NCBI GenBank assembly: GCA_012295275.1
Contig: CM022665.1
Span: forward strand, 38,068,001-38,132,000
Length of the DNA: 64,000 nucleotides
Reading direction: 5' to 3'
DNA from: Chrysomallon squamiferum
Taxonomy: Eukaryota; Animalia; Mollusca
This document shows positions 12,131 through 59,217 of this stretch, piece by piece; positions within the stretch are counted from its first letter, which is position 1, and each line of letters opens with the position of its first letter. The notes under the pieces were generated by a model that worked only from the letters and a program-made list of their open reading frames with translations, made no database searches and had not been told where the DNA came from. A program made the position numbers and the translations under genes.

Positions 12131-12173
<43 letters not shown>

Positions 12174-16778: not shown

Positions 16779-18648
16779 GTGAGATTCCTTTTATATCTTG
16801 GTCATGAAGAACAAGAATGTATAAAAACAATAACCAAAAATGGTTTAATAAACAATGCTAAAACAAGTCTAAATAAATAATAATTATAGGAAGTAGCACT
16901 AGTAGCAAAAGTGGTAGTAGTAGTAGTAGTAGGAGCAGCAGCAGCAGCAGTAGTATTTTTAGTGTAGTATTTTTAGAAGGAACAGCAAAAACTTAAGTAA
17001 TAATTATTGTAATAGTAGATGCAGAAATAGTACAGTAACAGTTGTTGTTACAGTAATATTGGAAGTTGCAGATGTAGGAGCATTAACAGTAGCAGTATTT
17101 GTCTGTCATTTTCTCTCTCTGTTGTTGTTTTCTGTTATTCTCAGTATGTTTCTCATTCACTTTCTAGCTTTTTCACTCTTTACTGTTTCTTTTCTTTCTT
17201 CTTCACACTCCTTTTTTCAATATTATCCTTTTTTTATATTTGTGTGTGTCTGTGTGTATTTTTTTTCTTGGTTTTTGTTGTTCTTTTCTTTTACACTACC
17301 ATATTTTTAAATTAAATCTTTTGAAGTATCTTCATTTTTTCCATTGATTGACAGTTCCTGTTAATATTGCATGCCAGTTTCCACGCTAGTAATTACACTT
17401 TCATTCAGTCAGCATGCATAAAATATCAAAATAGCATGACAGTGCTTTAATTTAATTACTGCCTATCAAATATTTATAAACTCATTGATAACCTGTGTGT
17501 TCTCAGATCTGCAAGCCAATTCATTTCATTAGTCGCTTAAATAGTATTTGAAAAAGAAGAGAAAAGAAAGACATTCATAAAAACTGAATGGTCTTTTAAA
17601 TATTGCTATCGTTGTGCCTGTTCTTGTATGTCTGGTGTGTTTATAGATAGAGATACTGATACACATCCATGCATACGTACACACATATATATATATATTT
17701 ACACACATGCATGAACACATACACATATGCACATAAATACCTATGTATTTGCATACAGACAGAAATAAAAACAAGCACTAATATACTTAAACATAAAGAA
17801 ATCACCATTCTGTTGATATCATTACATATTTTTAATGTGACATTTGTTTGGTATTAAATATCTTTCCTCATAATAATAAACTCTGAAAGAAACTATTTCA
17901 CATGCTCCACCCCAAGAGTTATTTTATCTTTCAATAGCAATATCTACTCTTATGCATGAAAGCACACATCGGATCTCTGTGGCTTAAAAATGAAATATTT
18001 GGTGACAGTGACTCATACATTACTCACATGACAGACTGAGTAATCAATTATTCTTTATTAAATATAGTTTGTTAAGGTGTTTTGTTTTTTTAAAAGAGGC
18101 TGGGGTGTATGGTTGTGGAAAATTGAAAACTTGACTACTGGTTGTCACTGATTGAAATGCTGGTTGTTTGATTAATGGCCATGACTCAAATTATTGGCAT
18201 AGTTTTCATTCATCTGTAATTTTTTAATTTTATTTCTTTGTTATTATCCTTTTTTAGATTCTTATTTTTATTTTTATTAAATTTGAAAATTTGTTAATGT
18301 TATGTTTATTTATTTATTTATATTTGTTTTCTGATGAGACATAATTGGATTAAGAAAGTATTTACCATTGTGTTTTTCATTTATGTGGTTTTAGAAAATA
18401 AGATGTATGCACTATATCTTTTCATTAGTCTAATATAGATATTTATTTATTTATTTAATTTTTGTTTTTATTATAATTTTTCTTCTTCTTCTTATTATTA
18501 TTAGTAGTAGTGGTGGTGGTGATGGTGGTGGTGTTAGTAACAGTTTTTAAATTTTTAAATATTATTATATTTAAATTTTATTTATTACATGTTTGCTTTA
18601 TTTCTTAACATTCTATTTGCTAATATCTCTCTATTTCAATGATTTCAG

Positions 18649-18757
18649 GTGTTAACTGTAGGTAATATTCTGAATGATGACCGATGGCACACTGTGTTTA
18701 TTAGACGTCGAGCACAGACTATAGAAATAGGAATTGACAAACACAGACCTGTCACAG
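18649..18757 (+). CDS. NRXN: alpha-neurexin exon, LNS4 middle (not in ORF track)
   Basis: tttcag|VLTVGNILNDDRWHTVFIRRRAQTIEIGIDKHRPVT|gtaact; matches LNDNEWHTVRVVRRG; phase 0-1. Confidence 0.94.
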
Positions 18758-20223
18758 GTAACTAACTAATTAACCTCACCAAGCACCCCAAAAATAAGTA
18801 TTGTCTAAACTGTAAGCTTAACTGACAAAGCTTTCTAGACAAACTTAGATGCAAACGCATTGCAGTGCAATTATATTGCTGTTACATGGACTAAATTCAT
18901 TAACCACATAGCATGTATAATCATCACTGTTACGTGCATATTAAAAAGCTTTCATGTGTAGTTATGTTAATTTGTTCACAGGTATGAGCTGTGATGTTAA
19001 AAGTTTTTGGGATAAGTCAGGTTTACAAACATTTCATAAATAATATAACTTACTGGGTGTTTTATTATTTTTATTATTTTTTTAAATATCTTTAAAAAAA
19101 TATCTTTATCTTGGTGCTAATATTAATTTTAATATGTATTTACATGTGTGTAAATATGTATATAATTACTTTGAGCATTTGTAAATTAGTTATCACACAC
19201 TTCTATATACAATAAAAGAATGTATAAATCACTTTGTAAGGTATGACTGATGTATTATGTCACTGACTGCATTAGCTCGTTTGACTTATTTTACATTACT
19301 TTTACTCTTGACAGTGAGAAAAATTGTGAACACTGCAGTGATTTATTTTTGATCTACTGTAAAGATGAGCATGTGACTTGGGGGCAAGAATGGGCAACAG
19401 CTTTCCCAAATATTAATAAAATAATGGGGAAAATTCAGGCAAAGCAAGATATTTATATTTTTAACTATGTAAAATTTGGGCAAATCAACCACTCTGCCCT
19501 CTTCATCAAAGAATTCCCATAATTATGCCCATGACCATAATCATAAAATTATTCAAGCATAATTGTTATTTCCCTTGTCTATGACATCACCAGGGACTTC
19601 TGTCCATAGCAGATATAAAAGTTGCCTTGTTTCTGTTTTAAATAAAGAGGAATTCTTAATGGTTGATATAAAAATCTTTGATTTCAGCCTTATTTTATAC
19701 ACTATTTCAGATACTACAAAATTTCATTATTTTTATGCTTTATACAGAAGAACCAATTTTTAATAGCATATTTTAAAAAACATTTTTCTTTCTTTGTAGA
19801 TTGGAATTAGACAATTTTTTATCAATGTACATTTCTATGCTTACATTTAAATTAAACACCATTTCTTTATTTATAATTTATATATAAAATATATAAGTGG
19901 TTTTTTTTTTGGTTTTTTTATCTTTTTTTTTTAATCTGCAATTTAAATTACAGTTGGTAATGTCTTGCAGTATCTATAATACTCTATTTTCAAAAGCAAA
20001 TTCATTATTTTGATAATTTAAAGTTATAATTTTTTGTTAATAATCTCATATTATGTTTAAGATCAAAAATAAATTTTGTATATAAATGACAATGCTGACA
20101 CACACACAAACAAAAACAAAAACCAGTAGAAAAGAAAAAAGCATCATTAGTTTCATGCACACCTGTCAGGTAAGTTTACACCTGTTAATTAGATTGTTGA
20201 TTTTCATTTGACTTGTGTTTCAG

Positions 20224-20298
20224 ACAAGCTTCCGGGCCAGGAGACCTCATTACAATCTAATGCCATAGTTCTTGGTTCAATAGATGCATTGAATCCTG
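20224..20298 (+). CDS. NRXN: candidate alternative neurexin LNS4 exon (DKLPGQETSLQSNAIVLGSIDALNP)
   Basis: gtgtttcag acceptor; G|gtataa donor; 75 nt; phase 1-1; aligns without gaps to the start of exon 22969. Confidence 0.6.
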
Positions 20299-22968
20299 GT
20301 ATAACAGTGTTCAGCATTTTCCTTCATCTTTGTCATTTGTCTTGTTTACCTTCTCATTTGTTTCGCATGAGATTTCTTTTTCTTTACTTTTAACCTTTGA
20401 CCTGTACAAGGTAGATCATTGAATGATCATGTAGCAATAATGGTTAAATTAGTGTTTGGTCCTTTTCAGTATAATCATAAGTTAGTTATAAGAAGATTGG
20501 TCTTAGTTGTACATGGAATGAGAAAAATACCATATGCCTACTTTTGCATGATATTTTCTACTTACAGTAATCTTTAGGGAGTGGTATCATTTTTTTTTTT
20601 TTTTTTTTTTATATAATGAAGCATATTTCAGTTTGACTGTTACATTACCCCAAATGACATTATTGTCATGGCCAGCACCATATTGCCATTTTCAGAAATC
20701 ATGGATCTACCCTGTCAGTGATAGGATATTGATGACAACCCATTCTGAATTCTTGCCAATATATCCTTAGTTTTGGGCTTGGATGACCATCATTTGATAA
20801 AGACCAGGAAAAAAAAAGAGCTTTAAACTGGTGCTGAAGAACATTTTTAGACAAGTAAATCAATAGGCTCCATTGAGAAGACATAATTTATATTGACCAG
20901 TGTTAGCCAAGTAGTTCATCAATGGATAAATAGTATATGGAAAATCTATGGAAAAAAGGTCTATGAGTTTTCTTGGCACCAGTACAAACTGACAGTTGAA
21001 AGACTGAATTCCACTTTTCCATGCTAAATTATCCTAATTTAGTTTGAAGGTTTTTAATGAAGTGTACATTTTTTATAATTTATATTGTATGTTAATGGTA
21101 TGTATTACAATAAATGCAAATGATAAATTGAATATTTAATATAGAAATATTAGGATTAAAAGGATTGATAAACATTGAAACAAACCAGTCATAGCCATTT
21201 AGGTTAAAGAATTTCCTAAACTGATACCTGCTTGCATGCTAGTTTTATATTATATTTCCCATCCAGACAGTCTTTTCTACCCACCTTGGACAGATGTCAG
21301 TTTTATGCTGTCTTGGCCTATACTAACAAAGTTCAGCATCTGGCTTTTGTGTAAATTACTGTATGTTTAAGTTTTTATGGTGGCTGTCACAGTTATTCAG
21401 GCTGGATAAGTCCTCTTTTACTTTATAAATTTTTTTATTTCATTTTATTTTTTATTTTTTATTTTTTAAAGTTTGTTAGAAGAATTATTTTTGTTCCCAT
21501 CATGTATTGTCAGATAAAGAGTTTTATGGCGCAATGTTCATAAATTTCTAGGATGTACATTGCTGTCAGTGGTCATCACAATTAAATCTTGTCTAATTTT
21601 CCTATGAAACTTATATAATTATATTCCATATGAACCAAATGACTGCCAAATATCACAGAATCAAATAAAGTTTTGATATAATGGTGGAATATAAGATCAG
21701 TGTGCCCTAATATATTGTTTTATCAGTTGTTAGTTAATAAGGTGCATAAAAGTATGACTCATCCCTAAACTTAAAGTAAGGCAAAGTTTCATAGATTACA
21801 TATACATAATCAAAATGCTGTTGATTAAAGAGTGGAACTGTCCTTAGGCAAAGTCTGGTGTCTGTTTGTCAAAGATTGTTTTGTTTAATATCAGTTAGAG
21901 TGCACTGGTTAATTTTCTGTCATCAGCTGTTAGACATCAGACATATGGTATTATTGACAAATAACTGTTACATGAAACTTGTGACATTTTTTTCAATTAG
22001 CTAGAAGTAATTGTTCTATAAATACCTTCCCAAGGTCAGACAAAACGTACAGTCTTTTATAACAAATCATGGGGCACTGAATGATGATGATAAGGAGAAG
22101 AGGTTAGTAAGAGCATCAATGAGGTTTGATCCAATAACCAGTGATGCCAGAGCTGTAACTATAGCTCTAATATTTCTCTATGTGTTTCATATTTTTGCTG
22201 ATGGTGCAACATATGTTAGTCTGGATAGGATCATTTCTTTTTTATGCTTCCTATTTTTAAACCAGTACCATTTCAGTTTTCTTTCCTGTATTAATTTAAA
22301 ACTGTTGTTATTCTCTTTGTACTTTTTTAAATTTAAGCTTCTGATGTCTGCATTGGAATGAGCAACTGAAATGTACTGTGGCTGATTAGCATATTGTCGG
22401 CCATGTTTTGTTTCTTCTTTGTTGCATTTTTATTGTAATTGGATAATGTTTTGTTTTTAAATAATAATTTTGCATGTGGTGTCTTGAATTATGGTCAAGT
22501 ATTTTGTATTTTTTTAATTTAATTTTTTTTTAACTTTATGTTATGTGTTTTGTTAAATTGTTTGCTGCATGAAAAAATTAAAATTTTATTATTTGAAATT
22601 TTAAAATTTTTATTTCCCACGGATATTTTTTTATTAATAAATATTGTTTATAATGAAATATTTTATTTATTTACTTATTATATAAATTTATTTATTTATT
22701 TATTTATTTATTTATTATAATTTATTTTAATTGCTGGATCTTAGTTCAAAATAAATATAATAAATAATTATAGTTTTGATAATAAAAATAAAAAAGATTT
22801 AGTACTAAAAGAATAAAATGATTAATAAAATTAATATAGAACAACAATATGAATCATTACTGTTTATTTACTTATTTATTTAATTATTTATTTATTTATT
22901 TAATTTCTGGTGCAAGTAATCTTGCTTCTGCTATGGAACATAACTTATATTTATTTCTTTCCTTACAG

Positions 22969-23727
22969 CTGATATGCCAGGAATATCAGATGAACTTGAA
23001 TTTCGAAACATTGAAATTGGTCACATGGTAAATGATGACAACTCTGTAGGAAAACATTCAGGATTCATTGGCTCCATGCAGCAGTTCATGTTCAACCAGA
23101 ATTTATTTTTTGAGATGGCACAATCAGGTAAAATAGACAATATTGACGTGACAGCGAAATTTAGCACTGACGAATATGTCGTCAGAGATCCCATCACCTT
23201 CAAATCAGCATCAGCATTTGCAATGTTAAATCGTCTCCAGATATACAAGGATTTTTCACTCTCATTTCAATTCAAGACAACTGAGGCAGATGGTCTGATT
23301 TTCTACAACGCTGGTAGGGGTCAGGATTTCTTTGCCATAGAACTCAAAGATGGGTTTCTTTACTATATCTACAACATGGGTGATGGCCCGCAGCAGATCA
23401 AAACCAACACACGTCAACCTCTCAACAACAATAAATGGCATGAGGTGCGACTACTGCGGACTGAGATATACAAACAGCTGATCCGAATTGACGACAACAC
23501 CCCAACAATTGACAATCTGTCAGGTGCTCAGGCTGTGAACTTTGACCTGGAAGGAAACTTCTTTGTTGGTGGAGTAAGAAAAACTATGTACCACTCACTG
23601 CCAAAACAGATCCAGTCAAAACATGGTTTCCTGGGATGCCTGGGGTCTCTGGATCTCAATGGATATCTTCCTCAGGTTGTGAAAGATGCTGATACCATAC
23701 ATCAGTCTGTTGTTGAAGGTTGCAAAG
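22969..23727 (+). CDS. NRXN: alpha-neurexin exon: LNS4 end and LNS5
   Basis: ttacag|ADMPGISDELEFRNIEIG...DPITFKS...FQFKTTEADGLIFYNAG...GFLGCLGSLDLNG...VEGCK|gtgaga; phase 1-1. Confidence 0.97.
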
Positions 23728-25497
23728 GTGAGACTTGTTGATGACTAACTCTAATTTAGTCCAGTCTACCTATCTACCTGCCTGTGTACCTATCTATCTG
23801 AATATATACACACACACCCACACATTCATACATATATACTTATAATATCTGTCTGTCTCTCTATGTATCTGCCTCTCAAAGTACGTATCTATCTCTCTGT
23901 CTAGATCTTCATGTTTCTTTATATTTGCCAATTGCCAATGAACAATTTTTGATGGAATAATATTTACCATTAAACCCACTATAATATATTTGGTCAGACA
24001 AAACTTTATTACACAACTTTGAAATGCATTTGCTTCCTGATGCTAAACCAGACGCAACATCTGACACCGCAATCAATGTTATGAAACAAGCTTATTTTAA
24101 AAGCAAATTGCCAGACTCTGAAAGACCTTGATAAGATAATTATTTTCTTTTGCCTCAGAGAAAGAGAGGGCATCAAGAAATAATATTCAAGAAATGAGTT
24201 GTAAATGTTATGTCCTTAGGAAAATATACTCTCCTGACTTTGGCTATGGTATATGAAAATATTTTAGTTATTTTTGAAAACTGATTGAAAATACTTTCTC
24301 TTTTTGGTCTTTTTTTCTTTTCTTCATCCTTTCTTTCTCCTTCTCTGTATCTTTGCTTCTCTCTTTTTCTGGCTCTACTCTCTCTTTGTCTTTCTTTTTC
24401 TCTATTTTCTCACTTACATCCACTGTTACAGACACAGAATACTAAATTTTGTTATTTTCATATCATTTCCTAAAAATAATTATCTTTCTTCTTTCTTTTT
24501 TTTTTTTTCTGTTTCAAAATTCTGTCCATAAATATAAACAAAAAATTGATTTCTGCTCATCTTAAATTCTCAGCCATTTCCAAGAACTTTTCTATGGTGC
24601 CATTTCCCAGGAAATGAAAATAATTGAATTGTATTTTTGGTTTGTAATCAAATATATACTCAATCTCAAATGCATTTCAGTTTTAAATCAAATTATAAAA
24701 ATATCAGAAATCTTTGAACAAATTGCATGGTTCATCTTTATTGCTTTTATTTGTGTCCTTCTCATTTGTATAAAACATGTTTATTTCAAAATTTATTTTA
24801 AATTATCTGTTAGAAAAGTTATAAATGACAGAATTAAATCCATAACAAGTTGACAGTTTTGTAAGGAGTGGAGCCAAATTTCTTTTGACCTGAAAGATCA
24901 CCATAATTTATTTTGTTTATAAAAAGTCTGACTGAAATATTAATAATATAAGAATATATTTCATCTTAAGCTACCGTTAGAATTTTTTTTTTTTTTTTTA
25001 TTATTTGCAGTATATTTTAAATTATACATCTATGTTTATAGGGCTTTTAAAATACTTTTATCATTCTAGTAAGTCAGTAATCATACCTATTAATTGAGTA
25101 ATATTTTATTCAAAAATTAATCATCATTTATTTTGTGTCCATAAAAAAAAAATCCCCATTCCAACCAGTGTCTCAAGATTGTTTGTTAATACCTGTGCTT
25201 CATACTCTCCTACCTAATGCTATGTTATAGGAGTTTTAACATACAAAACATACCTGGCTGTTAATGAAAAAATGTGATATGTTTATGTGAAAGCTAAATA
25301 TCAAATTAAAAAATATATGACATGATAGCTAATAATGAAAATTAAATAATGTGTTTTAGTTGTGTCATAAGGGAAAATAAACAATGACTTTTCACTTTCA
25401 TATATTTATTGTCATCACCATCATTATTGTTGTTGTTGTTATTATTATTATTATATCAGTGGTGCTGGTGGTAGTATTGTTTATTTTCCTTCGTCAG

Positions 25498-25617
25498 GTC
25501 CTACAAGACAGTGTCAAAAAGACTCCTGTGCTAACTTTGGTCGATGTATTCAACAGTGGAACTCCTACAGCTGTGACTGCGACATGACTTCATACTCAGG
25601 TCCTACATGCAAATTGG
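25498..25617 (+). CDS. NRXN: alpha-neurexin exon, EGF3
   Basis: cgtcag|[40 protein letters not shown]|gtgagt; six-Cys EGF; 120 nt; phase 1-1. Confidence 0.96.
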
Positions 25618-25935
25618 GTGAGTAAAAGATCCACATTAAGTGAGTAGGAAATGCAAATCAAGTGAGTAAGAGATCCAGATCAGGTATGAAGATCCAAATT
25701 AGTGGAATAAGAAGATCAAAATTAGATGAATGACAGATGCAAATCAGTTAAGTAGGCTGTCCAAATTAAATGTGTAGACAATTCAAATTAAGTGAGTATA
25801 AGATCTAAATTAAGTGAGAAGGAGATCCAAATTAAGTGAGTAAGACATCCAGATTAAATGTGTAGGAGATGAATTAGTAAGATCAAAAATTAAGTGAGTA
25901 AGGCATTGCAAATCATGTGCATATGCAAATTAAAT
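25618..25935. repeat. degenerate 22-bp tandem repeat starting at the EGF3 splice donor
   Basis: Consensus GTGAGTAAGAGATCCAAATTAA; about 13-14 degenerate copies. Confidence 0.88.
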
Positions 25936-26488
25936 GAGAAAAGAAAGAAAAATAATGTACAAAAGAAAGCTTGGTCTAAGAATTATTTATTATTAAAAAA
26001 GAGGATTTGTTGAGAAAGTGCTTAAGATACAAATCTAATTTATAATAAAGCTGCAGGAGTAGATGAAACAGGGTGAAAAATATTAGGTGTGTTGTTCAAG
26101 AAGATTTAATGTTATAAAATCAGTACAACACATTTGCAGTTATATACTGAAACAGAGTTTGCCATTTCTCTTTCAAATCTGTTCACAGTTCTGTATTATT
26201 TTGATAAAGAGAGATAACTCTGATTAAGGTCAGTTTTAATAATTTAATAGGTAAATCTTAAAGCCAGAGTTGTCTGTGCATTGTGCTTATAACTTTAAAA
26301 AACATCTTTTGTCAGCTATTGATTTCTTTCATAATTCCCTCTCTCCATTTCTCTGTCCCTGTCCCTATCCCTGTCCCTTTCTTTTTCTGTATTTCTCACT
26401 CTTATTTTCTTTCTCTCTAGTATGACAGTTTGATTATATAATTTTATTTTGAAATATGTTAAAAAATTTCTATCATTAATGTTTTCAG

Positions 26489-26667
26489 CCAGTACCACCT
26501 ATGAGTTTGGACCAGGTGTTGGTCTGATAACTTTCACTCACCCCTCTGGAAAGAGACCTGACAACATCAGGGACACCCTTGCCCTCGGCTTCACCACACG
26601 AGCTCGTGATGCTGTCCTTGTGAGAATAAACAGTGGCAGCTATGACGACTACATCGAACTGGAAGTG
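26489..26667 (+). CDS. NRXN: neurexin exon, LNS6 start
   Basis: tttcag|ASTTYEFGPGVGLITF...RDTLALGFTT...VLVRINSGSYDDYIELEV|gtaaat; phase 1-0. Confidence 0.95.
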
Positions 26668-26974
26668 GTAAATCACAAAAATTTATTATTTTTATTAGTT
26701 TGATATATATACAAAATATATTATAAATCATAATAATTTGAGAGATGTATATTTATTTTAAATAGATTTATTTAATATTCAAAATATAATATCAAACATT
26801 TGTACAAAATTTAACATTTGTATTATATTTTTGTTATAATTAATGTTAACTGTACTGTTATTATTGTTATTATTAATTTTACTATTTTTATTTTTCATTT
26901 TTTTTTTTTTTTTTTTTTTTTTAACAATTTATTTTTACTGTTAAATGAACAATAACTAAATATGACATCTACAG

Positions 26975-27146
26975 GTAAATGGAAATGTGTTTGTGGTATA
27001 CAACATGGGGACAACAGACCACCCAATTGGTGAACTCTTTGAGAAAGTGAATGATGGGAAATATCATGTGGTACGATTTACCCGCTCGGGTGCCAATTCA
27101 ACAATCCAAGTTGATGATTCTACTATGCAAACAAAGAATCCAAAAG
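26975..27146 (+). CDS. NRXN: neurexin exon, LNS6 up to the SS4 position
   Basis: ctacag|VNGNVFVVYNMGT...VNDGKYHVVRFTRSGANSTIQVDD...KNPK|gtaagg; NDGKYHVVRFTRSG is the conserved LNS6 motif; phase 0-1. Confidence 0.96.
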
Positions 27147-30100
27147 GTAAGGGAGATAACCAAAGCAGATTATATTAACATCAGTGTAAATTAATGTGGT
27201 GATATTCTTTATTTTCTTTTCTTCTTTTTTTCACATCACTTTATAAACATTGTGGTGTAAAGTATGGAAAGTATCATTATCCGAGACTATATGTTTTAAA
27301 ATATACATAACTTTTTGTAAATACATTTTTATTAGTTTATTTATTATTTTTTAGATATTTATTTATTTATTCTGAAATATTATTACATTCATTATGTTAT
27401 GAAACTGCTGAATTATTAATTATTCAGTTGTTTAACTGTATATGACAGTTACTTAATCTTGTTTTCTTTTATCACAGGAAAACAATTTTTTTTAGTAGTG
27501 GAATTAATTTTATATGAAATTTAAAAAAAAAAAAAACATTATAATAATAAAAATAAAGCTGTGATGAACTATTTTGTGTTATCAGATTTCCAAGAAATAT
27601 TTTCTATAGATATAATTATTAATTTCTTTTAATATTATTTGTTTATTTATTATCATTATTTTTTTTTTTTTTTTTTTTATAAATCATCAAAGATTATAAA
27701 ATGAAAATAATAATGAGCTTTTGTTTAAAAAAAATATTTTGAAATTTTTTTTGTTGCTTACGGGGATTTCAAGCACCAGTGAAATTAAATTAAATACTAA
27801 TCAGCTGCCTGGATTATTAACATATTTGTATTTAATATTCATGAGTTGTATTTAACGTGTTCACACAGAATAGGAGTTTTATTATTTTTGTTTTAAAGAA
27901 AAAATAAACGCATCAACTTTTTTTTGTTTTCAGTTTAAACCTTTTTTAATGTATATTTGTAATAGGAATGAAAAATAATGAATATATTCATTATATTTAT
28001 ATTTGATTCTCCTCTATGTCAGCCTTTGCTAATAATAAAGTCTGACACTATGATAACAAGCCTCAGAGATACTCAGATTCTTTGTTATATTGTTTTTTTT
28101 GGAATTTTTTTTTTTTTGTTTTTTTTTTTGTGATATATATTTATTCAAAGAAATGGAAAAGAAACATTTAAATGCACCTAATTATGTTCTCAAAGAATTA
28201 AAATAGCAGTTTCCATATATTGTCCTGGGCTTGTTATAGTAATATCATACCTTATGATCTTTAAAGGTTAGTTTGAGAAAGCAAATAATACTCACTTTAA
28301 AATATTAAAAAAGTTATTTGTTTCGAAAACCACAGATTATGCTTTAAAGAATATTTTATTAAAAGAGATTTATGAAATTTTCAAAACCTTTAAATAAAAA
28401 TGGCAGGAAAAAAATGCTTAAAAACAATTTTGTTTAATGTCCTGTAAACAAGTTTCATTTAAAAAAAATCTCTTTGTTTTCTAGTGTCATTAAAAATAAA
28501 GATGAAGGCTAAATGAAACACCATTAAATCCTAAAATGTTCTTGATAACACAAACATCTGAGTTTAGATCAAGAGCCATGATATTTTATTTGCCTATTTC
28601 AGGACAGATTTAGCTTTTCTGGTTAATGTTAACAACAATGCCATGAAAAAAAGGTGCAAAAAAGATTAATAACAGATTTTTATGTTGTATACATCAAACA
28701 GTGGATTTCACAGGAAATTAATTCATATTGGCAGATAATTCAAGAAAAACAAAACATTATTTGTTCATTGATTATAACTTTAATTTAGGATGAAAATTAT
28801 GTTTATAATGTATCTCTTTGTATTACACTTTTTGTTTTGTTTTCATCTTATTTTTTTATCTTTTATTTTTTTCCCCTGCATAATAAACATTGTATTTTTT
28901 CCTTCTGTGACAAAATTTCAGATTTCAAAACTTCATGAAACTACCTATTTCTGGTGAACACAATAACATTAAAGTGATTGTTTTTTGTACAGTTATTTTC
29001 ATATATAATTATTATTTAAAAATATATGTTTTAATCATAATTACACATTATTCACTGTACATCATGCTTATTATTCATAGGAAAACTTTTAAACTGTATT
29101 TCAATTTCTCACTGGATAATTGTGTTTATTTATTTTTTTAATTTAGTAATATAATTCTGTTCACTAAATATTATTGGTAGTGTTTTAAAAACATATTTAG
29201 TGCATTTAATATGTGGATATTTATAAATATGCAGTTAAGACTTATTATTGTGTGAGCTTAAGGTGGGGTATTAAATGTTTTTGTTTTTTTCACAAAAACA
29301 ATCTAAATTGTTTTGTACATATTGTAACAAATCCATGGTATTTTATTTTTTATATGATAGAGTATTTATACATATTTGCTTCACATCAGTAACATAAATT
29401 GATTAATGTTATTAATAACATCACTTTTTTAATTTCTGTTTCTATTATAGTCACAGATAAAAAGAAATATTTTTGAAAATTATTTATTCATTCACAAAAT
29501 ATATCCGTAAGAAGTACACGTATATGCATATATTGTAAAACGTATGATTCAATTAACATTTGTATTTCATGAAAATCGTCATCATCCTTTTGAAACACAT
29601 AGAAATGTTGGATGTTAAGTGTTAATATTGTACTGATACGTTATCTTAACATATACAGTGCTAGAATTACAAAGTGATTTAAAAAAAAAAAAAAAAAATT
29701 CAGACTTTGAGGTTTTTTTTTTTTAAAGTCACTCGAGGAATTGTCATTACAGTTTAATTCTTCTTAGTATCTCTACTGGGCTATATCCCATTTCTGTCTG
29801 TGCCCTTTGACTGGTGCATGAAAGATCTCTTGCATTAACTATTTTGACTGATGTGCATAACTTTCCTTACTCAAACTGTCAAAGATTAATATTACTATAT
29901 TATTTGTTTGTCAGTCTTATTTACCAACATTTGGACTTGTATATTGTGCATATTATATTCATCGATAATAGAACTCATTAATAATATTAATGAAACAACA
30001 AACAAATTATCAATTTAATCATATTAGCTAACAAGTTAATTCTTAAGTTTACTTGCCATGATCATCATATAGTTATTTTATATAATGGTTTTATATGAGT

Positions 30101-30601
30101 ATTTGTACGTTATTATTATTTGTTTTTTTGTATCTGCAGCAAGGAAACAATAGTGTATATACATTGATAAGAAATAGATAATAGACTGTATTTATTTTGG
30201 CTTCTGTCCATCTCTGACTGTTAATTTTAATGTTTTTGTATGTATAATGCATTTCATCATGATTAATATTGTAAAAGTCAGTCCAAATTAATAAAAGTAT
30301 AGTTAAAATTATCACTCCAAAACCAAATAATATTAGTAATAATGATAATAATAATGATAAGATTTAATTTAAAAAAAAAAAAAAGATTAATTAAAGCATT
30401 ACATAATACATTTACAAAAAAACCTTCTAAAAAAAAATTATGTTTGAAGCAAAAAATTACTTTAACTTTCATGTACATTTTACAGAATTATCTTAAGATA
30501 TATTGAAAAAGATTATAGTATATTCCTTTACCTTTTTCATAAAAATTTATCAAAACTGAAACATAAATTGCTTTGTCTTTATTTTTGTAAATTTATTATT
30601 A

Positions 30602-30633
<32 letters not shown>

Positions 30634-30931
30634 ATTGTTTGTTATTATTGTCATCATCATTATCATCATCATCATAATATTATTATTATTATTTAAAATA
30701 TTTTTAATCTATGGCACAAATTTGGTATAAATATGACTTATGATTGCATCTGTGTGATTTTAACATGGTACAAATTTTATGCAATTGTTTTTACTTTCTT
30801 TTCTGTTTTTTTTTTTTTTTTTAATTAAAAGAGTTCACAATAAATTTTAAATTTCTTTTCTTACTTTGGACTGGCTTACCATTGTTTTGTTTTCGGCTGT
30901 ATATCTTTTTACATTAATTTACATTTCTTAG

Positions 30932-30967
30932 TCTTCTCATGGCTTTTGGATGAGGTCTATGACCCAG
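30932..30967 (+). CDS. NRXN: candidate neurexin SS4 microexon (VFSWLLDEVYDP)
   Basis: tttacatttcttag acceptor; CCAG|gtaaaa donor; 36 nt; phase 1-1; no stop; WLLD shared with the vertebrate SS4 insert. Confidence 0.72.
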
Positions 30968-31075
30968 GTAAAATAATTGAATTCAGAAGGTTACCATGGT
31001 AACCACACAGCACCAATTATTTGTCAAACTTATCAATCAATTGGTGTAATAATTATTTTTATTTCAAATTTCATT

Positions 31076-31113
<38 letters not shown>

Positions 31114-32168
31114 CATTTTTATTTTTAAAATTAGTGTTTGAATGGAATTATTTTAAATTGAAAGCAACACAATATATTATGGTTTGTCTTCTTTATTTTA
31201 AACTTTCGTTTTTATATATATAATTTTATAATATATATTAAAAACATATTAGTCTCTTAATTTTAAATTGTTTAAGAAAGAATATAAATGAAGGATATAT
31301 TTGCATTTCTGTGTTATAAATAATGAAATGAAATGATCATTTGGTGCATGTTATTAATGTTTCTTATAATATTTTACCTACATTTGACTGAAACAATTCA
31401 CAATTGAGTTGCTTATGATCACAAAATCACATGCTTTTACCAGAGAAAGTCACAAATATTTCAAATTTGAATACATCACTAATCTGCCATGAAAAATGTC
31501 AGCACAAATTTTGGGAACTGAACATTCACAATAATCCATTTGCTTGCAAAATGGAGTTGTATGTGGAATGGGAAAAAATATATCTGTATCTGTCACTAGT
31601 TTCACTCTTCATCTTTTTTTTTTTTATTCTTTACTTTTTTAATCTGATTATAAAAAAATTTAAATATATTTTTAAAATAATTAAAATTACTAGAATTAGC
31701 TGATATAATATTTATTTTTAAAAATATTTTTTAATTAAAAAATTACTTAAATTCTTTGGCTATTTTTGAAGTTAGTAATGTCAAGAAAAATTAAAAATAT
31801 GTATAAACAAATTAAACAAATACATTTTTAAAAAAGATTTAAGAAATAAAAATTAAAAATAAAATCAAAAGCTTAATCTATAAATACATCTAATTTAATC
31901 ATAGTAATTTTATATTATAGATGGCTTTTTTTATTTAAATAATAAAATAGTAAAATTTTTGTTCCTTAGGAATATAATAATTTTTTTCCATTAAAAATTA
32001 CCTAATGACAGTTTAAAACTATCAAAAATAATAACATGCACCGACATTTTTCTTACAATAAAATGTTCATGACTTAACATTTGATGCTTTGCTTATGTAA
32101 TATTAATATTTATCTATATAAATATATATAAAATACTGATAATTGTTTTTCTGATGTGTATTTACTAG

Positions 32169-32270
32169 GACAACAGTTGGAGGTTTTCAACAATCAAGCT
32201 AATATCTACATTGGTGGAAAACGTATGGACAATGGCTCTGTGGTTCGGCCTTTCCAGGGAACAATCTCAG
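32169..32270 (+). CDS. NRXN: neurexin exon, LNS6 after SS4 (not in ORF track)
   Basis: tactag|GQQLEVFNNQANIYIGGKRMDNGSVVRPFQGTIS|gtatga; matches GRQLTIFNSQATIIIGG..PFQGQLS; phase 1-1. Confidence 0.95.
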
Positions 32271-32659
32271 GTATGAACTAAATAACATCAGTTATCACCT
32301 TCTTCATCAGAATGAATTTAACATCTTCAGTACCTTTCACCATCACAATGTAACAGAATCTATGGTATTATATTTACACTGGGCATCATCTACTTCTCCT
32401 GAAGTGATTTTTCAGATGTTTTAAATTTTATTTATTTATTTATTTTATTTTATTTGATTTATTTTTTATTATCATTTCGCTTAGATATAATTAATTACCT
32501 GTATATACTGAGACAACAAAGTTATTATTTTTTTTGATTTCCACATAAATATTTCTCTGGTGATAATTAATATATCTTATTTTTTTATTTCATGTACCTA
32601 TTACTATATTTTATATTTCTGTCCTTTTTTTTTTTTTTTTTTGTCTGTGTGTTTATAAT

Positions 32660-32780
32660 GATATTATTTTTATATTTCACTTACCTGGAATGACCTATAT
32701 ATTATATATTTCACTTACTTGTAATTACCTATGTGTATTTTATATTTCAGTTACCTGTAATTAATTACCTGTATATTTGT
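32660..32780. repeat. degenerate ~35-bp repeat before exon 32793
   Basis: Repeated tatatttcacttacctg...attacct units. Confidence 0.7.
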
Positions 32781-32792
32781 GACTACTTGCAG

Positions 32793-32892
32793 GTCTTGTG
32801 TTGAATGGTTTACGTATTCTTGACCTTGCTGTACAGCGAGATCCCCGAGTGACCATCAGAGGCAATGTATTTCACAGAGAAGAATCCCCAAT
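32793..32892 (+). CDS. NRXN: neurexin exon, LNS6 end (not in ORF track)
   Basis: ttgcag|GLVLNGLRILDLAVQRDPRVTIRGNVFHREESP|gtagga; matches GLYYNGLKVLNMA..D..I.I.GNV; phase 1-2. Confidence 0.9.
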
Positions 32893-33739
32893 GTAGGATC
32901 AGCTTTATTGTTACTAGTTTTAAATTTTTTTCTGTCTCAAAATTTATAATTAATATCATTACACTGTTTCTTTTAATGCTTTTTTTTTTTTTTTTTGTAG
33001 GGGGGTAGGGGTAGATTCTTGTTCGAGTTTTTTGTTGTTGTTTTCTATTTATTTTTTGTGGTACTGATATTTTTTATAAATTTATTAGAATAGGAAATAT
33101 AAGTTACATTAAACTTTCAATGGTTATGTAAACATTATTTATTGTCATAAAAAAATTCATTAGATTATAATATGGGTCAGTGGTCAGAGCACTGGACTGG
33201 GATGTCAGCAGTCATAGGAACATTCCTTGTATCAGCACTTACAGCATGCCATATATCCCATTTCAAAGTAGTAGTTTATGGCTGATTTATTGAAGACTAT
33301 AGAGTTTCCTTTTCTCTAAAATGCATAAGAAATAATCTTTGTTGCTACCAAGAAAAGCAGCAGCAGGCTTCTTTTTTCATTTCATTATGAAAATGTAAAA
33401 GAAAATTTGAATTTCATAAAAGAAATGAATCTAGATTGCGTTCTTCATTCTAGTTCTGTTTGAATTTTATTTATGTTACAACTGAAATGAAAATGTCAAA
33501 ATTCCATCTTCAGTGGTTTTAACATTTTATTTATTGATTTCTTGAAAAGAATTGATTAAAAAAAATATAGATATATAAATCAATTGGAAACGTAACACAG
33601 ATATTAATTCTAATCAAAAAAAAGAAAAAAGAAAAGATAAATAAATAACAAATATAAATCATGTGTGAAGGGGGAAATAACAGAATGTAATATAAAATAC
33701 ATAAATGTCTCATAATTAGAAATTTAAATTCTACCTGGT

Positions 33740-33975
33740 AACCTAGTTCAATGCTAGAGTACTTAGCTGAGAAAGAGTGGTTTGCAGATCAATCCTCTAC
33801 CTTGCACCCACTGGGCTATTTCCCAATCCATCCAGTGCTCCTGTAATTGTGTTAACAACAGTGATACACGCTTTCTGGAATATAAAAGATCTCATGCTGC
33901 CAGACTATAAATATCATGGCTACAGTGGTTTCTGTTTCTCATACTGTCATGACAAACTGACTGACAATTATTAAT
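33740..33975 (+). mobile_element. decayed tRNA-derived SINE
   Basis: A-box-like TAGTTCAATGCTAGAG, B-box-like GATCAATCC, then ccactgggctatttccc..ccagtg..atataaaagatc; related blocks near 400-610, 8730-9000, 13360-13610, 25150-25330 and 33170-33370. Confidence 0.6.
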
Positions 33976-34569
33976 TATTAACATATGAATAAATTGAAAT
34001 GTCATAAAGCAAACTTTTTAAAGATTATTTACAAATGAATTCATTCTCTTGCATTTCTGTTTTTATATTAACGCCTTTATATACTGACTAAAGTTAGAGA
34101 TAATGAAATGTTTCTACTGGTGAAACATCATTATTTATCCAAGAAACATAATTTATTGATTGAAATACAATATTAATCCTTTAAAACCTGAGTGGATAAA
34201 ATTTTAAATAAAAAATCCTAAAAAAACTTTTATATGCAAGTAGTTAATGTTTTTATCATCATGTGTAATGATGATCATTTGATAATCAGCCATTCATCCT
34301 GAAGATACCAGAAATGACAATTGGAATTTTTTTTTGTACTTTGCATATGAGGCACATGTTTGTCTGGAAGCTTGGGGTTGAAAGGTTTTATTTGTGGACA
34401 ACAATGTATTAGAAAACATGAATTCCATCAAACAGTGACTGCAAAGAGCACAACTCTTCAAAGCAGCGTGAACACAAATTTTATTATCCCTACATTATTT
34501 TGTTCAGTATACTTAAGATGTGAAAGTATAAATTCAATTAACTCAAATAATTTTATTAATATTTTACAG

Positions 34570-34633
34570 TGAGAAACCATCTACAAAAGAGGAAAGGATT
34601 GATTATGAAATGCAGTCTACAATGGGTGTGAGG
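34570..34633 (+). CDS. NRXN: neurexin stalk exon
   Basis: ttacag|(I)EKPSTKEERIDYEMQSTMGVR|gtaagt; phase 2-0 bridges 32892 to 40349 exactly. Confidence 0.82.
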
Positions 34634-34644
34634 GTAAGTACTTT

Positions 34645-34950
34645 ACTTAGTATAGAAAATAATTTTATTATGCAACAGAGAAAATGAATCAGGATTTGTT
34701 GAGCTTCTTCCAAATAACATAATGGATCTGAGTGTTTTTATTGATATTGAAAATAATTCTATTATGCCAACAGAAACAGTGAATCATCATTAAGCATGCT
34801 TCCAAATAACACAATAGGTGTAAATGTTTTATTGATATTGAAAATAATTTTATTATGCTAACAGAGACTGGACCAGTGTACAGATTGTTTTTAAAAAATC
34901 AATGAGACTGAGTAAATGTATTTATTGTTGCTGAAAATCATTTTATTGCA
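34645..34950. repeat. ~95-100 bp degenerate tandem repeat
   Basis: Recurrent ttattgatattgaaaataattttattatgc.aacaga and ttccaaataaca blocks; 3-4 copies. Confidence 0.75.
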
Positions 34951-35474
34951 CAAAGGAACAATATACTGTTATTTTAACATGCTTTGAGAAACAAAACAAA
35001 ACAAAAAATAAACATATATTTTATGAGATTGCAGTTGTAAAAGGAAAGAGAAAGATTAATACATTGTGCCTACTTCAGAAAAAACTTATATTTTTGGTTC
35101 TTTTTGATGAAACAGAAGGAATAATATGCTGCATGGTGATAAAGGTATTTCAACAGGTTTGAAAAGACAAAGAATCTATTGTTTTACAATCATTTGTGAC
35201 ACAGATCTGAAATGTTCCACGGTTACTTTCCTGTGATTATTAAGTTGTTTTTTTCTTTTTTTTGGATCTATAATTATCAATACTGATCTGAATGTGTGTA
35301 TGTGTGTGTATGAATGTGTATGCATGAGTGTGCATATTTGTGCATGTTTGTGTGAATATGCTGCTATGATTTATTTTTATTTCTATTGTTTTTTTCACAA
35401 ATAAACTGTCCACTGACAAAAGCTCAGCAGTATTATGAACCCTTAATACGTTGATATGTATTCAATTTGTGCAG

Positions 35475-36272
35475 CAAAGAAAACAAGCTATTCCACAACA
35501 GCATTTAAAAAGACACTGGAGACACAGAAACACAGTAACAGGAGGAAGAGAACAAAGAAGAAGAAGAAGAGGATATCTCAACCATCATGAAACAAACAAA
35601 ATTTCTGCTTTCGTTCCTTATGAAAACAAGGACAACAGAAACCTCAGACCCTTGGTACTTAATCCTAGGATTGTGGCTCTCCCACCAGAAGAAGAAAAAC
35701 CCAAAAATACAAGTGAAAGCACCAGTTCAAGATCTAATTGGCAGAACAAGATAGATATCTGGAACAAAGTTAAAGACACTTATGTAAATAAGGTTATCCG
35801 TGGAGTCCCCACCCCAAGGACTGTGAGTAACTCAGTGTCCACAAAGGCTCACTACTGTTCTTTTCAAGTTGGCTCAGATGAGTACTTCCAGTTGAAGGCA
35901 CCAGTAGTATTTGATGCAGTACATGAAGGAAGTGCTGATGGCAAAGGTGATGATGAAGATGATGATTATGACAGTGATGGTGGTGGTGATGAGTTTACTT
36001 GGATGAAGTCTACTGCAAGCATGACAGATGATGTCACTACAAAGAAGACCACTGTTTCCAGTCATGATCAGAATATGATTAAATCTCCCATTCCACCGCT
36101 GACTAAACATGACTCAACAACGTGGAGAATGGTTAATGATAGTTTAATACCAACATACTGGACACATGCTCAACAAGTGACTCAACACAATCAGGATACT
36201 TACACCAAACCAACACTGGTTTCCTCCAGACATCTCAGAGTCACCTTGGCAACAACTATTTCCAGTTTCATG
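35475..36272 (+). CDS. NRXN: candidate large alternative neurexin stalk exon (266 aa; or terminal exon ending at stop 36312-36314)
   Basis: gtgcag acceptor in phase 0; 798-nt stop-free frame that is GC-richer than the intron; phase-0 donor ATG|gtatcc; Ser/Thr-rich, acidic and poly-Arg segments. Confidence 0.62.
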
Positions 36273-38844
36273 GTATCCATTTCTGCCTGTTATGTTTGGC
36301 ATGATCAGACCTAGATGCCTGAATTGAGTGTTCTGTAGTTGGGTACACTCTATAGCATGCTCTTTTCAATATTATAACCCAAAACATAACATAGCTTGGA
36401 TAAACTTTCAAATAGTTTTTAAATCATTCTTAAAAATAAAAAACAAATCGTGAATGAAGGAAGAATCATAAAAGTGTCTAGCTTGTAGATGAAAACAAAA
36501 TCATAAAATCAAAAATGTAAAATTTATGCATTCATATTTCAGTTGAACTCATCTTTTATTACAAACTGTCATCTGAATAGCATGTTTAGAGTCACGTATT
36601 TGTTTTGGACAGTTTATGTTTTTATCTGATTTAAAAATTCTCTATACAGTGAAGTCTGGATAAAACTAACCCAGGGTTCTGATAAATCAGAATAACTTGT
36701 CAGTACATTCACTATTCAGTATTTGACTTCTTTATCTATAACTATAATTAATAACCACAATTTATCATATTTTAACTATTACTGTTAACTTTTTAACTTG
36801 CAAAAAAAAATGAAACAGTTATTTTACGTAGAACAGACTCATAAGGCTTCATGGGCATCTACAACAAAAAAGAAAAAAAAAAGAAAAAGGAATATAAATG
36901 AACCTTGACTGTTATTTGTTTTTATGTATTAATAATATAAATTTGGACAGAATTCCAGGATTTACCCTTTAAAGAATATTATAGTAACGGAACTATATTG
37001 TTACTATTTGTAAACTAAGAAAAACAAATTTTAATAATAATATCGGACTCTGTCATACAAGCTCATGTAATGTCATCTATAAACACTGTCTTTGGGGAGT
37101 TCAGATGGGAGATGTATTTTTTTATCATTATTTAAAATATTTTATGAGCAGAATCTTTGATACATTTTACTTATCTCAGCCCAAAATTCTATTTTCCTTT
37201 CAGTACTACTAAACAATTAAAAAGCAAATATTATTTCTTTTCCATATACACACATATTTTATTGACCGTGTTCTTGAAATCTGCTTCTCTTAATTCAAAG
37301 CATTGTCCTCAATGAAAATAAATTAGAATTACATTCCCAATTTCCTCATTTGTCATATATTTCAGTTTCTAACAATTAATTTATTGATTTAAATATAAAG
37401 AAAACATATAGTCCAGACTGACAGGGTTGATTGCTTTGTAGCTGTTATACAAAAAAAAAAAAATGTTTATTTTATTGAATTGAGTTTGCATGTATTATTT
37501 TTGTTTTTAAATTAAAAATAATTTTACTAAATAGTATAAATAAAAAAAAAACTGTTAAATTTATTTTATGATAATCATAACATTTTTCATTTAAATTTAA
37601 ATTTTTTTGTTTGTTGTTTTAATTATTTATAATTGTCAGTAAAATTGTTTTAAATTTCATAATACTTTATAGGTTGCTAGCTAAAATTGCATGCTTCATT
37701 TTGAAATAATAATTTTTATTTTTTGTGTTATGTGCCAGTGTGTTGTCAGCCTAACAAAGCTTATGTTCTTATAGTGCATGGTTTTCAACATCCACTTCAA
37801 AACAGAACAAAAAAATAATAATAAATAATACCAAAAATACAAACAAAAATAATTTAATATTATTCCTAACTGCAAGTACACACAATTTAGGTCTCTTAAA
37901 TCTAGAAAATCTGTACAGTTTATATAATCAGTGTAAAACAGATGCATATCTTTAAGGTTTTTGGAATTTTTTTTGGTGCATCAGCAATTTCTTTTGTCTT
38001 TTCTGAACATTATACAAAGTCATACATCAAATTAAAGATAAGTTTAGTACTTATATTACTAATAACATAAATTTATCCATGTCAACCTCTGTAGTACAAT
38101 GGTTAGGTTGTCTACCTTCAGATCTGTAAGTCCTAGGATCACATCCCAATACTGGCTAGAGCCTACATAACTTACTGGAGATGTTTAGCATGATTATATC
38201 TTTCATTCTAAGTAATTCTAATGACTGTGTTCAGGTCAGACAACAAAATAAAAATATATACTTCATGAAACTTGTTTTTAAAGGAAAATAGATAGGCTGA
38301 TTAATACTTTATTGAATATGTTTGGATTATTTGCCCATTTAAGATGAACCTTTAGAAGAAATAATGATATTTCAAATGGTTGATCTCACAAAACGTAGCT
38401 TTCTCTACATTTTTAAAGAACCTGTTTTTCTGTCTGTCTTTGTTCTGTTTTTGTCTGTTATGTCTGGACCATATCTTTTATTTAAACTGGAGAAAGTTTA
38501 ACATTGGGTTTTATCTGTTCACCCATCTTAAAAGACAAGAAAAATATCATTTAAACCAAATTATTATCTACTGAAAATATATACCAGGGTACAAATGGAT
38601 AAAAACTTAAATAGGTAAATAATGACTTACAAATGATGATAATCCAAATTTTTTATCTCTTAAACAGTGACAGTGATTTACTTGTAACAGCAAAAAATAT
38701 ATATATTAAATAAAACAATTTTCTTTTTAATTTTTCACTTTAATCTTGCTACATTTAATAAATTTGGTTAGAGTGTTTTTCTGAAATGAAGGACTTACTA
38801 TTAAGGTATTTTTTTCTCCCCTCTACTATGGCATGCTATATCAG

Positions 38845-38875
38845 TGATACCCACTACATGCAATACTCATACAGT
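38845..38875 (+). CDS. NRXN: candidate neurexin stalk microexon (I)DTHYMQYSYS
   Basis: pyrimidine tract plus gcatgctatatcag acceptor; AGT|gtaagc donor; phase 2-0, the same as exon 34570-34633. Confidence 0.42.
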
Positions 38876-40063
38876 GTAAGCCAAACACACAGTGATATTT
38901 TAATCACAAACTCCATAAGAACAGTGAAATCAGCAGAACCATGCAAACCTCCATCATTGTTAACCTTCAAAGCATGACTTATTATTTTTCATTTATTTTT
39001 TTTTATTGTAAATATTGTGCTCATTAATAAAGCAGTTTGAAAGTGACTGTGTTAGTTGTTTTTAGTGTCAGCCATTTTAGTTAATTAGAGTTTCTTTAAC
39101 CATTGCATTTATTTATGTGGGTTTTTTACGCTTTGAACTTTTTAAGTAATCTTTTTAATATATATATATATATATTTTTTTAAATAAATGTTATATTTGG
39201 ATTATTATGATGATAAAAAAAAGAGTTAAATTCAGTGTCAGAAGAGTTTCATAACATTTATAAGAATTTTTAATAATTATTTTATTATTTATATTATACA
39301 ATAAGTATCAAAAAAGTAAAAATAAGCTTCTTTAAAACAATCCATAAGACAGCATTTATGGGAATCTTTATCACTTATTTTGTTGTGTTGACACAATCTT
39401 TGGTAATTGCTTTATGTGTGCAAGAAACAGGATAAATATGGAATATAAATATGGAATAATATTTAAACAGATAGGAACTGTTAACTAAAATAAGTACACA
39501 GTCAGTTAATACTATTAAAAGCAGTCGTGTGGCAATACTGAATATTAAATAATCTTTTGTCATAAAAGCAAGTTTTGTTTTAAAAAAAAAATATTTTTAA
39601 ATATCTCTTAAAGAAAAACAATTGTTTATCATGTAACTAATCTTATAACAAGTATTTCTGTTTTTAAGAAAAATATTTCATACTTGCAAGCATTTTGGAA
39701 AAAAAAAAATTTATTAAAAAAAACACACAACAAAAAATACAGTTTTGAGCAGTTTTCATTCTGTCACAACATATTCCTGTCACTAAATCAGGTTAAGAGC
39801 TGCATAAAAAGTTGTCATTATTATTTCAAAAACATAGATAGGTGTCTTCAGTTACTGATTTTTTTTTCTTATAGATTACAAATAATGAAAAAATAAAAAG
39901 TGTGCTGTCTGTTTAACATGTCTTTATACATTTTTTCTGAATATTTTGAATTTTCATCTAAGGCAAAAATGAAAAATAAAGTTGTGTTTTTGTTTGGCTT
40001 TTTCTTTTTTTTTTTTTTGTTATATGAATTATCAAGGATGTTCTAATTAACCAGAATAAACTA

Positions 40064-40101
<38 letters not shown>

Positions 40102-40348
40102 AAACAAAAAAATGTTCTAGAATATGACTGAATATTAAATGTTATCTTGTGGATTGTTTAACCTTTTACTAAAAGATTTTTAGAAATATTTTCTTTTGTT
40201 GACAAATACTACTGCTTTAGCTGTAACAGTTAAGTAAAGTCTGTTATTATTTTATAATTTAAATATTGACATAATGTATTAATTTGATTATTTATATTTT
40301 CATCACCACCTGGATAATAATAATTTTATGATCTATTTAACATTACAG

Positions 40349-40524
40349 CAAACAACACCAAAACTGGGTGTGACTGATGACATCATTTTCTCAGGAGCTG
40401 GACCTGGATGTCATAGTGATGATGAAGATGATTGCTCTCCCATTGGTTCAGGAAATGAAGATGACATCATTACACCAACAGTAGTGATAAAAACAACACC
40501 AACACCACCTACCACAGCTTCTAA
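40349..40524 (+). CDS. NRXN: neurexin stalk and Cys-loop exon
   Basis: ttacag|QTTPKLGVTDDIIFSGAGPGCHSDDEDDCSPIGSG...TTAS|gtaata; matches [21 protein letters not shown]; phase 0-2. Confidence 0.92.
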
Positions 40525-41045
40525 GTAATAATAATATTATTTTGCTCCTGTTCCTTGAATATGTACTTGGGCAAGATGTGTTTAATTGTTTTTTATTATT
40601 TAAAAAACAAAAAAAAAAAAAAAAAAAAAAAAATGAAAAACTGACAGGTTTATAAAATTTAGTTCATTCCTTTACCTTGTATTTTGTCCAACCACATTTG
40701 TGTTGTCACAGTTTGCACTGTAATTCAGTTCATTTCACCATATGTGATTCCTCTACCATCCTGATCATCTTAAAAGCTTTTAGAATTAAGCCTTTTCTTT
40801 GTGATTCATTAATTATTAATAATTTTATTATCATAATTATTTTTGCTACTAATACATCTACTGATATTTTCAACTGTTGCTACGACTGTTATCATTATTT
40901 CATTGTTGTTGCTATATGTATTTATTATTATTATTATTTTTATTTTTTTATTTTTTTTTTTTTTTTTATTATTTTTATATATTTTTTATTATGTAGTCAT
41001 ATATTTCTGTTGGTAATTTTTTTTTTTTTTCTGTTATTTGTCCAG

Positions 41046-41469
41046 GACTCAGACATACAAAAAATGTATTGGCTCAAACTGCCCAATCAATGGAGAAGAA
41101 TACTTTGTCTCAACATCAGACAAAGGTCTGTCTGAAGGATCCCGCGACTACAACACTGGACATGGGGGATCAAAACCAACACCTGAAACTGGCAAGGAAT
41201 CAAAAGGAAAAGGTAACAACACCATCAACATCGGCATCATCATTGGCATTGCTGCTGGAGTGCTGGTGGCCATATTGATCCTTGTGTTCGCTCTGTACAA
41301 GTTCAGAAGTCGTGATGAAGGAACTTACAAAGTGGACGAGAGTCAGAACTTTTCTTATCTAGAATCAAAGAAGCCGCAGGGTAATGGGGCATTGCTGACT
41401 ACTGCAGACAGTGGAGCTAATGCTAAAAGGGTGGGCAAGAAGAAAGATGTGAAGGAATGGTATGTCTGA
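41046..41469 (+). CDS. NRXN: neurexin last coding exon: juxtamembrane, TM, 4.1-binding motif, PDZ ligand
   Basis: gtccag acceptor; TM IGIIIGIAAGVLVAILILVFALY; KFRSRDEGTYKVDES; C-terminus KKKDVKEWYV* (invertebrate neurexin-1 type). Confidence 0.97.
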
Positions 41470-59091: not shown

Positions 59092-59185
<94 letters not shown>

Positions 59186-59217
59186 TATATCTATTTATTT
59201 AATTTATATAATTACAG

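Follow-up and report, generated by a model that had tools for sequence, protein, structure and literature searches.

A candidate microexon at splice site 4 of a gastropod neurexin gene, matched in octopus and a ribbon worm and somewhat more likely to be separate in origin from the chordate exon

Among the splice switches of synapse biology, splice site 4 (SS4) of neurexins has been studied best, and the locus analyzed here, from the gastropod Chrysomallon squamiferum, raises the question of whether a mollusc carries an optional exon at this site and whether that exon shares its origin with the one in chordates. Choi et al. are said to have described, in 2011, an SS4-position insert in Aplysia neurexin; if they are cited correctly, it has already been published that a mollusc can have such an insert, and that insert is probably the same exon as the one described below, whereas the Aplysia protein in our set (P0006) is a skip form, unlike the cited insert. 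From fly, sea urchin, Ciona, and lamprey it was concluded that SS4 splicing, there called AS4, emerged de novo in chordates (PMC3933685), and molluscs, annelids, and amphioxus are not among the species in the portions of that AS4 comparison considered here. In the honeybee, site 4 is given as an intron junction in the available text of PMC2570956. A search of the literature outside subscription papers found no description of a family of SS4-site exons in molluscs, nemerteans, or annelids and no comparison of their motifs.

Most of the alpha-neurexin gene of a gastropod lies within the window, which is the whole stretch of 64,000 nt that was analyzed; the large exon that encodes LNS5 shows 75% identity to Patella vulgata and 72% to Haliotis. 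The features on which the analysis turns are as follows, in window coordinates.

7990..41469, + strand: exons of the host gene, a gastropod alpha-neurexin, located by tblastn from LNS2 as far as the cytoplasmic tail, which ends in KEWYV
26975..27146, + strand: upstream constitutive LNS6 exon, ending ...TKNPK-G (runs X1 and X3 have RNA contigs over it)
27147..32168, + strand: SS4-position intron, 5,022 nt
30834..30931, + strand: 3′ splice region of the microexon, with a T-rich tract, about 96 nt free of AG, and a TAG acceptor
30932..30967, + strand: candidate cassette microexon, 36 nt, phase 1-1, VFSWLLDEVYDP, inserted in LNS6 at the SS4 point (best window match of the Lineus and Octopus inserts)
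30968..30973, + strand: microexon donor GTAAAA after CAG, without G at +5
32169..32270, + strand: downstream constitutive LNS6 exon, starting G-QQLEVFN (the loose end of the X1 contig at 27147 consists of the first bases of this exon)

The original prediction had placed a 36-nt, phase 1-1, stop-free exon at 30932..30967, between the exon ends at 27146 and 32169, and had equated the intron with the splice-site-4 position of vertebrates. Coordinates, splice sites, and reading were all confirmed, since the segment is stop-free, is directly preceded by TTTCTTAG and directly followed by GTAAAA, and reads VFSWLLDEVYDP. The upstream exon, whose donor at 27146 reads AAG/GTAAGG, matches LNS6 of neurexin-1-alpha and the LNS domain of beta-neurexin, and the intron behind it lies at an identical position and in an identical phase in vertebrate, insect-like, and annelid-like loci. 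Lamprey isoforms differ at exactly the snail SS4 point by a 30-aa insert ending VVDDWLLDK, so that the assigned position holds, and the vertebrate insert motif given in the prediction is found in database sequences. Phase 1-1 is itself uninformative on origin, because any in-frame exon in the SS4 intron must have this phase.

Within the intron, 37 stop-free, frame-keeping AG..GT candidates of 3 to 150 nt were counted, and the microexon alone passes filters on pyrimidine fraction (at least 0.7), a YAG acceptor, and donor match (at least 6/9), the cut-offs having been chosen with the site known. The G missing at +5 of its donor is also missing in 12 of the 12 annelid-like microexon donors listed (see below), and vertebrate SS4 donors likewise do without it, as seen in Fig S7 of PMC3933685.

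Annotated lophotrochozoan proteins carry inserts at the same point, all of them in predicted RefSeq isoforms and 12 to 14 aa long. The insert of the nemertean Lineus longissimus, VFSWLLDDEVQLT, is present in 3/4 full-length isoforms and shares seven identical residues, VFSWLLD, with the snail microexon; that of Octopus, VSSWYIGEILDP (12 aa), occurs in 8/14 isoforms and that of Biomphalaria, VFSFDEEINTMILQ, in 7/16, in both cases among those listed (the clusters being listed in part, 15/26 for Octopus and 15/19 for Biomphalaria). In oyster (Magallana), isoform P0482 carries SFLSKLFSVNEFP, and its cluster mate is without the insert (1/2). When the first eight residues of the Lineus insert were compared with every six-frame position of the window, the microexon ranked first of 127,948 (score 41, next 28), and with the Octopus insert it ranked first of 127,924 (score 37, next 27); none of 4,000 background peptides scored as high as either. 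Judged by sequence, the Lineus and Octopus inserts are clearly the same exon as the snail microexon, which at 12 residues falls with them into the lophotrochozoan SS4-site class as defined in this analysis (12 to 14 aa). An SS4-position microexon is thus conserved far beyond Chrysomallon, and its WLLD is common to the snail and a nemertean.

The Biomphalaria and oyster inserts are diverged and not significantly similar to that of the snail (p 0.06 and 0.25, respectively). Among annotated gastropod isoforms, none carries the insert in Patella vulgata (0/3), Haliotis (0/13, one low-quality model being left out), Babylonia (0/2), Pomacea (0/2), or Aplysia (0/1), and the brachiopod Lingula likewise gave 0/2. 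Because even close gastropod relatives show no insert, its absence from annotations is weak evidence.

Other insertions at this point were also observed. The Octopus isoforms P0125, P0156, and P0165 show a second, unrelated cassette of 9 to 10 aa after the first, which occurs in 7/14 isoforms among those listed and yields four isoform combinations; against the snail SS4 intron it gave no match (best score 13). P0374 has a Cys-containing insertion of about 9 aa; P0464 and the intronless locus L003 have a Gly-rich insertion of about 6 aa.

Metagenome data extended the comparison. The scan kept 80 of 107 neurexin loci, whose SS4 introns were compared with one another, and conserved 36-nt, phase 1-1 exons were found in 17/80, inside introns that are otherwise unalignable. 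These fall into two sequence types: EFYRHFTDFEPA, at 15 loci in 10 distinct intron groups and present in 4/4 complete introns of that gene type, and DFDWFTKDRQVT, at 2 loci. In the larger annelid-like group, 7 of the 12 variable columns are third positions. The loci are judged lophotrochozoan, and probably annelid, because their best matches are mostly to Capitella or Lineus. The DFDW type resembles the Lineus insert (score 18 over nine residues), while the EFYRH type is unlike the snail insert (score -4). When the metagenome introns were searched for similarity to known inserts, the annelid-like exons escaped notice, and only intron-versus-intron conservation revealed them. No such exon was found in a divergent neurexin group (13 complete introns), in four insect-like loci (628-nt introns), or in three further complete introns, and the SS4 introns of three arthropod-like loci span only 60 to 71 nt.

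For the Biomphalaria, oyster, and EFYRH-type exons, homology rests on place and length, because their similarity to the snail insert is not significant; we infer that these and the annelid-like exons are the same exon in diverged form. The cassette is therefore likely to be lophotrochozoan-wide. That an optional exon is kept at the SS4 point by molluscs, by a nemertean, and probably by annelids qualifies the published view of SS4 splicing as a chordate invention.

The divergent group, recognized by …KRPT-G-RQLT[TS]F[ND]RPSR, has complete SS4 introns with no conserved microexon and is possibly a paralogue that lost it. Its loci are given here.

L042, L054, L055, L061, L062, L065, L070, L072, L074, L075, L077-L079: divergent neurexin group

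Whether the snail microexon and the vertebrate SS4 exon are one and the same was judged from structure and from motif. The two share the intron, phase 1-1, optionality in isoform sets (for the snail exon, those annotated in its relatives), the insertion point in LNS6, a VxxWLLD motif, and a donor without G at +5. They differ in that the vertebrate exon measures 90 nt and the snail microexon 36 nt, and in that the latter is without the RLAxARxRIPY part and has four more residues after the motif. As to UWAA-rich flanks, which KHDRBS proteins use at the chordate exon, the counts beside the snail microexon (8 upstream and 6 downstream) are no higher than the AT-rich intron background (mean 8.0) and are uninformative. 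By its length, the microexon falls outside the chordate SS4 family, whose members in vertebrates and tunicates (about 30 aa) have in common an RLAxAxxxIP segment that is absent from the 12-aa snail insert. The placement of the motif differs as well, being toward the 5′ side in the invertebrate exon and 3′-terminal in that of chordates.

The tunicate AS4-like exon (Ciona, Clavelina) sits at the same point and, like that of the snail, reads VxxW followed by a hydrophobic residue, yet it is about 30 aa long, can be aligned with vertebrates throughout, and gives a score of only 13 against the snail insert (p 0.27, not significant). Tunicate inserts align with lamprey over their full length (score 46) and nonetheless do without LLD: Clavelina has WFKS in place of WLLD, and Ciona has WLRS (Fig S6 of PMC3933685). 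One of ten Clavelina isoforms (P0109) skips the insert, and lamprey skip isoforms are also annotated; in Ciona ESTs, AS4 skipping was not found, according to the portion of PMC3933685 that deals with them.

From the shared WLLD, the prediction had argued that the SS4 insert itself predates the protostome-deuterostome split. In a single pairwise test the match is indeed beyond chance: VFSWLLDE against VD[DE]WLLDK scores 27, with 5 identities in eight residues (p 0.0005-0.002 against background and 0.015-0.02 against shuffles). As a family-wide motif, however, WLLD holds on neither side. It occurs in 2/7 lophotrochozoan insert types, while Octopus has WYIG, one annelid-like group has WFTK, and the inserts of Biomphalaria, oyster, and the other annelid-like group contain no W. 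When the seven lophotrochozoan inserts were combined into a profile, VDxW came out as the top register within the chordate insert in 9/9 set-ups, the tunicate-only one included, and with the full set of seven none of the 1,232 vertebrate positions outscored it. The corrected p value was 0.022 for vertebrates and 0.064 with the tunicate, rising to 0.14 without the snail and to 0.5-0.66 without the snail and Lineus.

On balance, an origin of the microexon within the lophotrochozoan lineage, independent of the 30-residue exon of chordates, is the more likely. A separate origin is favored because WLLD is confined to 2/7 insert types and is missing from tunicates, because removing the snail and Lineus abolishes the profile signal, and because no insert is seen in Ptychodera, Asterias, or the listed arthropod isoforms, the arthropod-like introns being as short as 60 to 71 nt. 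The counts behind the last point are 0/11 annotated isoforms for Ptychodera, 0/2 for Saccoglossus, and 0/9 for Asterias, and the listed isoforms of Schistocerca, wasp, horseshoe crab, scorpion, and tardigrade are likewise without insert; the hemichordate and starfish negatives are undercut by the fact that annotations miss such exons in gastropods too. A search of representative proteins, with look-up of their clusters, yielded nothing from amphioxus, priapulids, or xenacoelomorphs. The second Octopus cassette indicates that the SS4 loop gains exons readily. In the part of a 2026 preprint available to us (10.64898/2026.09.05.749416), only two neural exons are ancestral to bilaterians and recurrence is widespread. 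The call between separate and shared origin is the weakest step of the explanation.

Shared ancestry is a serious possibility, although we consider it less likely than not. It supposes that the protostome-deuterostome ancestor had a short VxxW[LF] exon at the SS4 point, of which lophotrochozoans kept 12 to 14 aa while chordates added about 22 codons at the 5′ side and trimmed the 3′ end, and that the exon was lost in arthropods and perhaps in ambulacrarians. The lophotrochozoan microexon would then correspond to the last 8 residues of the vertebrate insert, which would have grown through an upstream move of its acceptor, and the SS4 switch would be older than chordates. The VxxWLLD match and the constancy of the profile register speak for this account, as does the fact that the snail, Lineus, Octopus, one annelid-like group, both tunicates, and vertebrates all have a W with L, F, or Y directly after it. 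At a vertebrate SS4 exon (L080:3159-3191), whose donor is also GTAAAA, a phase-1 TAG precedes V-D-D-W at the place of the snail acceptor, which is suggestive at most, as this is one locus and the coincidence is estimated at about 1 in 4 by chance. Against shared ancestry, the corrected profile p values are modest and the signal disappears without two inserts, the site was selected on account of the match itself, both exon ends must shift (about 22 codons gained, 4 lost) and at least two losses must be assumed, and an intermediate form was not found among the inserts compared. Nor is an exon reported for the fly (76-bp intron) or the sea urchin (about 500-bp intron, Genscan) in the text consulted of PMC3933685.

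If the two exons are of separate origin, as we favor, they clearly exemplify how a switch can be placed on one and the same LNS6 loop by two lineages. If they are shared, the switch dates to the bilaterian ancestor and the de novo chordate origin of AS4 is overturned; the exon would rank with APBB and MADD as one of a handful of neural exons of ancestral age and would suggest a ligand that predates cerebellin and LRRTM.

We next consider whether the exon is used in Chrysomallon itself. RNA evidence consisted of three runs from one study, in the form of contigs only, and the region examined was 26900-31600. One X1 contig (depth 2.6) represents the skip form, as it passes from the upstream exon straight into the start of the downstream exon. 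RNA depth over the microexon was zero in the three runs, in which the flanking exon reached a depth of only about 3 to 6, and contigs drop rare forms. Thus, of the junctions named by the prediction, the skip junction (27146 to 32169) was found in one contig from this single study and the inclusion junctions were not; at such low contig depth, inclusion is neither shown nor excluded. Given its conservation, the microexon is very probably included in this species, and its inclusion may be enriched in neural tissue.

That the exon has been conserved without still being spliced in this species, or is something other than a regulated cassette, seems to us quite improbable. The zero depth is in keeping with it, and so is the acceptor: Srrm/eMIC neural microexons have UGC close to the 3′ splice site, as described in the portion consulted of PMC8797185, and TGC stands near the acceptor in 8/12 annelid-like loci, whereas in the window none lies within 30 nt of the snail microexon acceptor. 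The snail exon is otherwise like that class in being short and frame-keeping and in having a long AG-free zone (96 nt). Against loss of splicing, seven residues are identical to the nemertean insert, the length and both splice sites are intact, and the shallow flanking depth leaves the zero little weight. That the segment is chance intron sequence reading WLLD, a string that occurs once more in the six frames of the window, on the minus strand, is refuted, with a negligible residual probability, by its top rank among some 128,000 positions for two independent inserts and by its being the sole one of 37 candidates to pass the splice filters.

Taken together, the evidence inclines us to regard the segment as an optional SS4-intron microexon, matched in octopus and a ribbon worm and more likely separate in origin, that would add a 12-residue loop to LNS6 and alter ligand binding. 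In vertebrates, according to the consulted parts of PMC10084454 and PMC6856630, inclusion at SS4 reduces the affinity of NRXN1 and NRXN2 for neuroligin, prevents the binding of LRRTM and latrophilin, and permits that of cerebellin. Dystroglycan counts with LRRTM and latrophilin among the ligands that the chordate exon switches off. Because the invertebrate insert enters the same loop as vertebrate SS4, its inclusion probably alters the LNS6 binding face. By analogy with the vertebrate site, skipping would leave a compact LNS6 that binds neuroligin-type partners, and inclusion would place an aromatic and acidic loop beside the binding surface, by which affinity would be lowered or shifted.

Cerebellin and LRRTM are unlikely partners of such a loop, as a review, in the part seen, limits both to vertebrates; a putative Ciona cerebellin is mentioned in the available portion of PMC3933685. 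Neuroligin, latrophilin, or dystroglycan would be likelier partners of the insert-bearing LNS6. Whichever origin is correct, the exon raises the question of which ligand reads the insert where cerebellin and LRRTM are reported absent, and its 12-residue version is testable in molluscan synapse models. AlphaFold2 returned a neurexin fold for Lineus LNS6 with the insert (9 sequences), with pLDDT below 50 over most of the insert; in a lamprey control (25 sequences), pLDDT was likewise below 50 over the motif, and because it is low in both, the models are silent on how the insert packs.

Elsewhere in the window, a 291-codon open frame (35439-36314, + strand), Ser/Thr-rich and with an RRRRR run, is situated after the last LNS6 exon and before that of the cysteine loop. 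It gave no Pfam hits and did not resemble the long isoform of Haliotis; a large stalk exon of optional use is one possible reading, because Haliotis isoforms differ by about 240 aa in that region. Downstream of neurexin, a tandem repeat of about 33 nt (53130-54258) produces long repetitive open frames on both strands, and exons of a dihydroxyacetone kinase gene (Dak1 domain) occupy 57511-60953 on the + strand.
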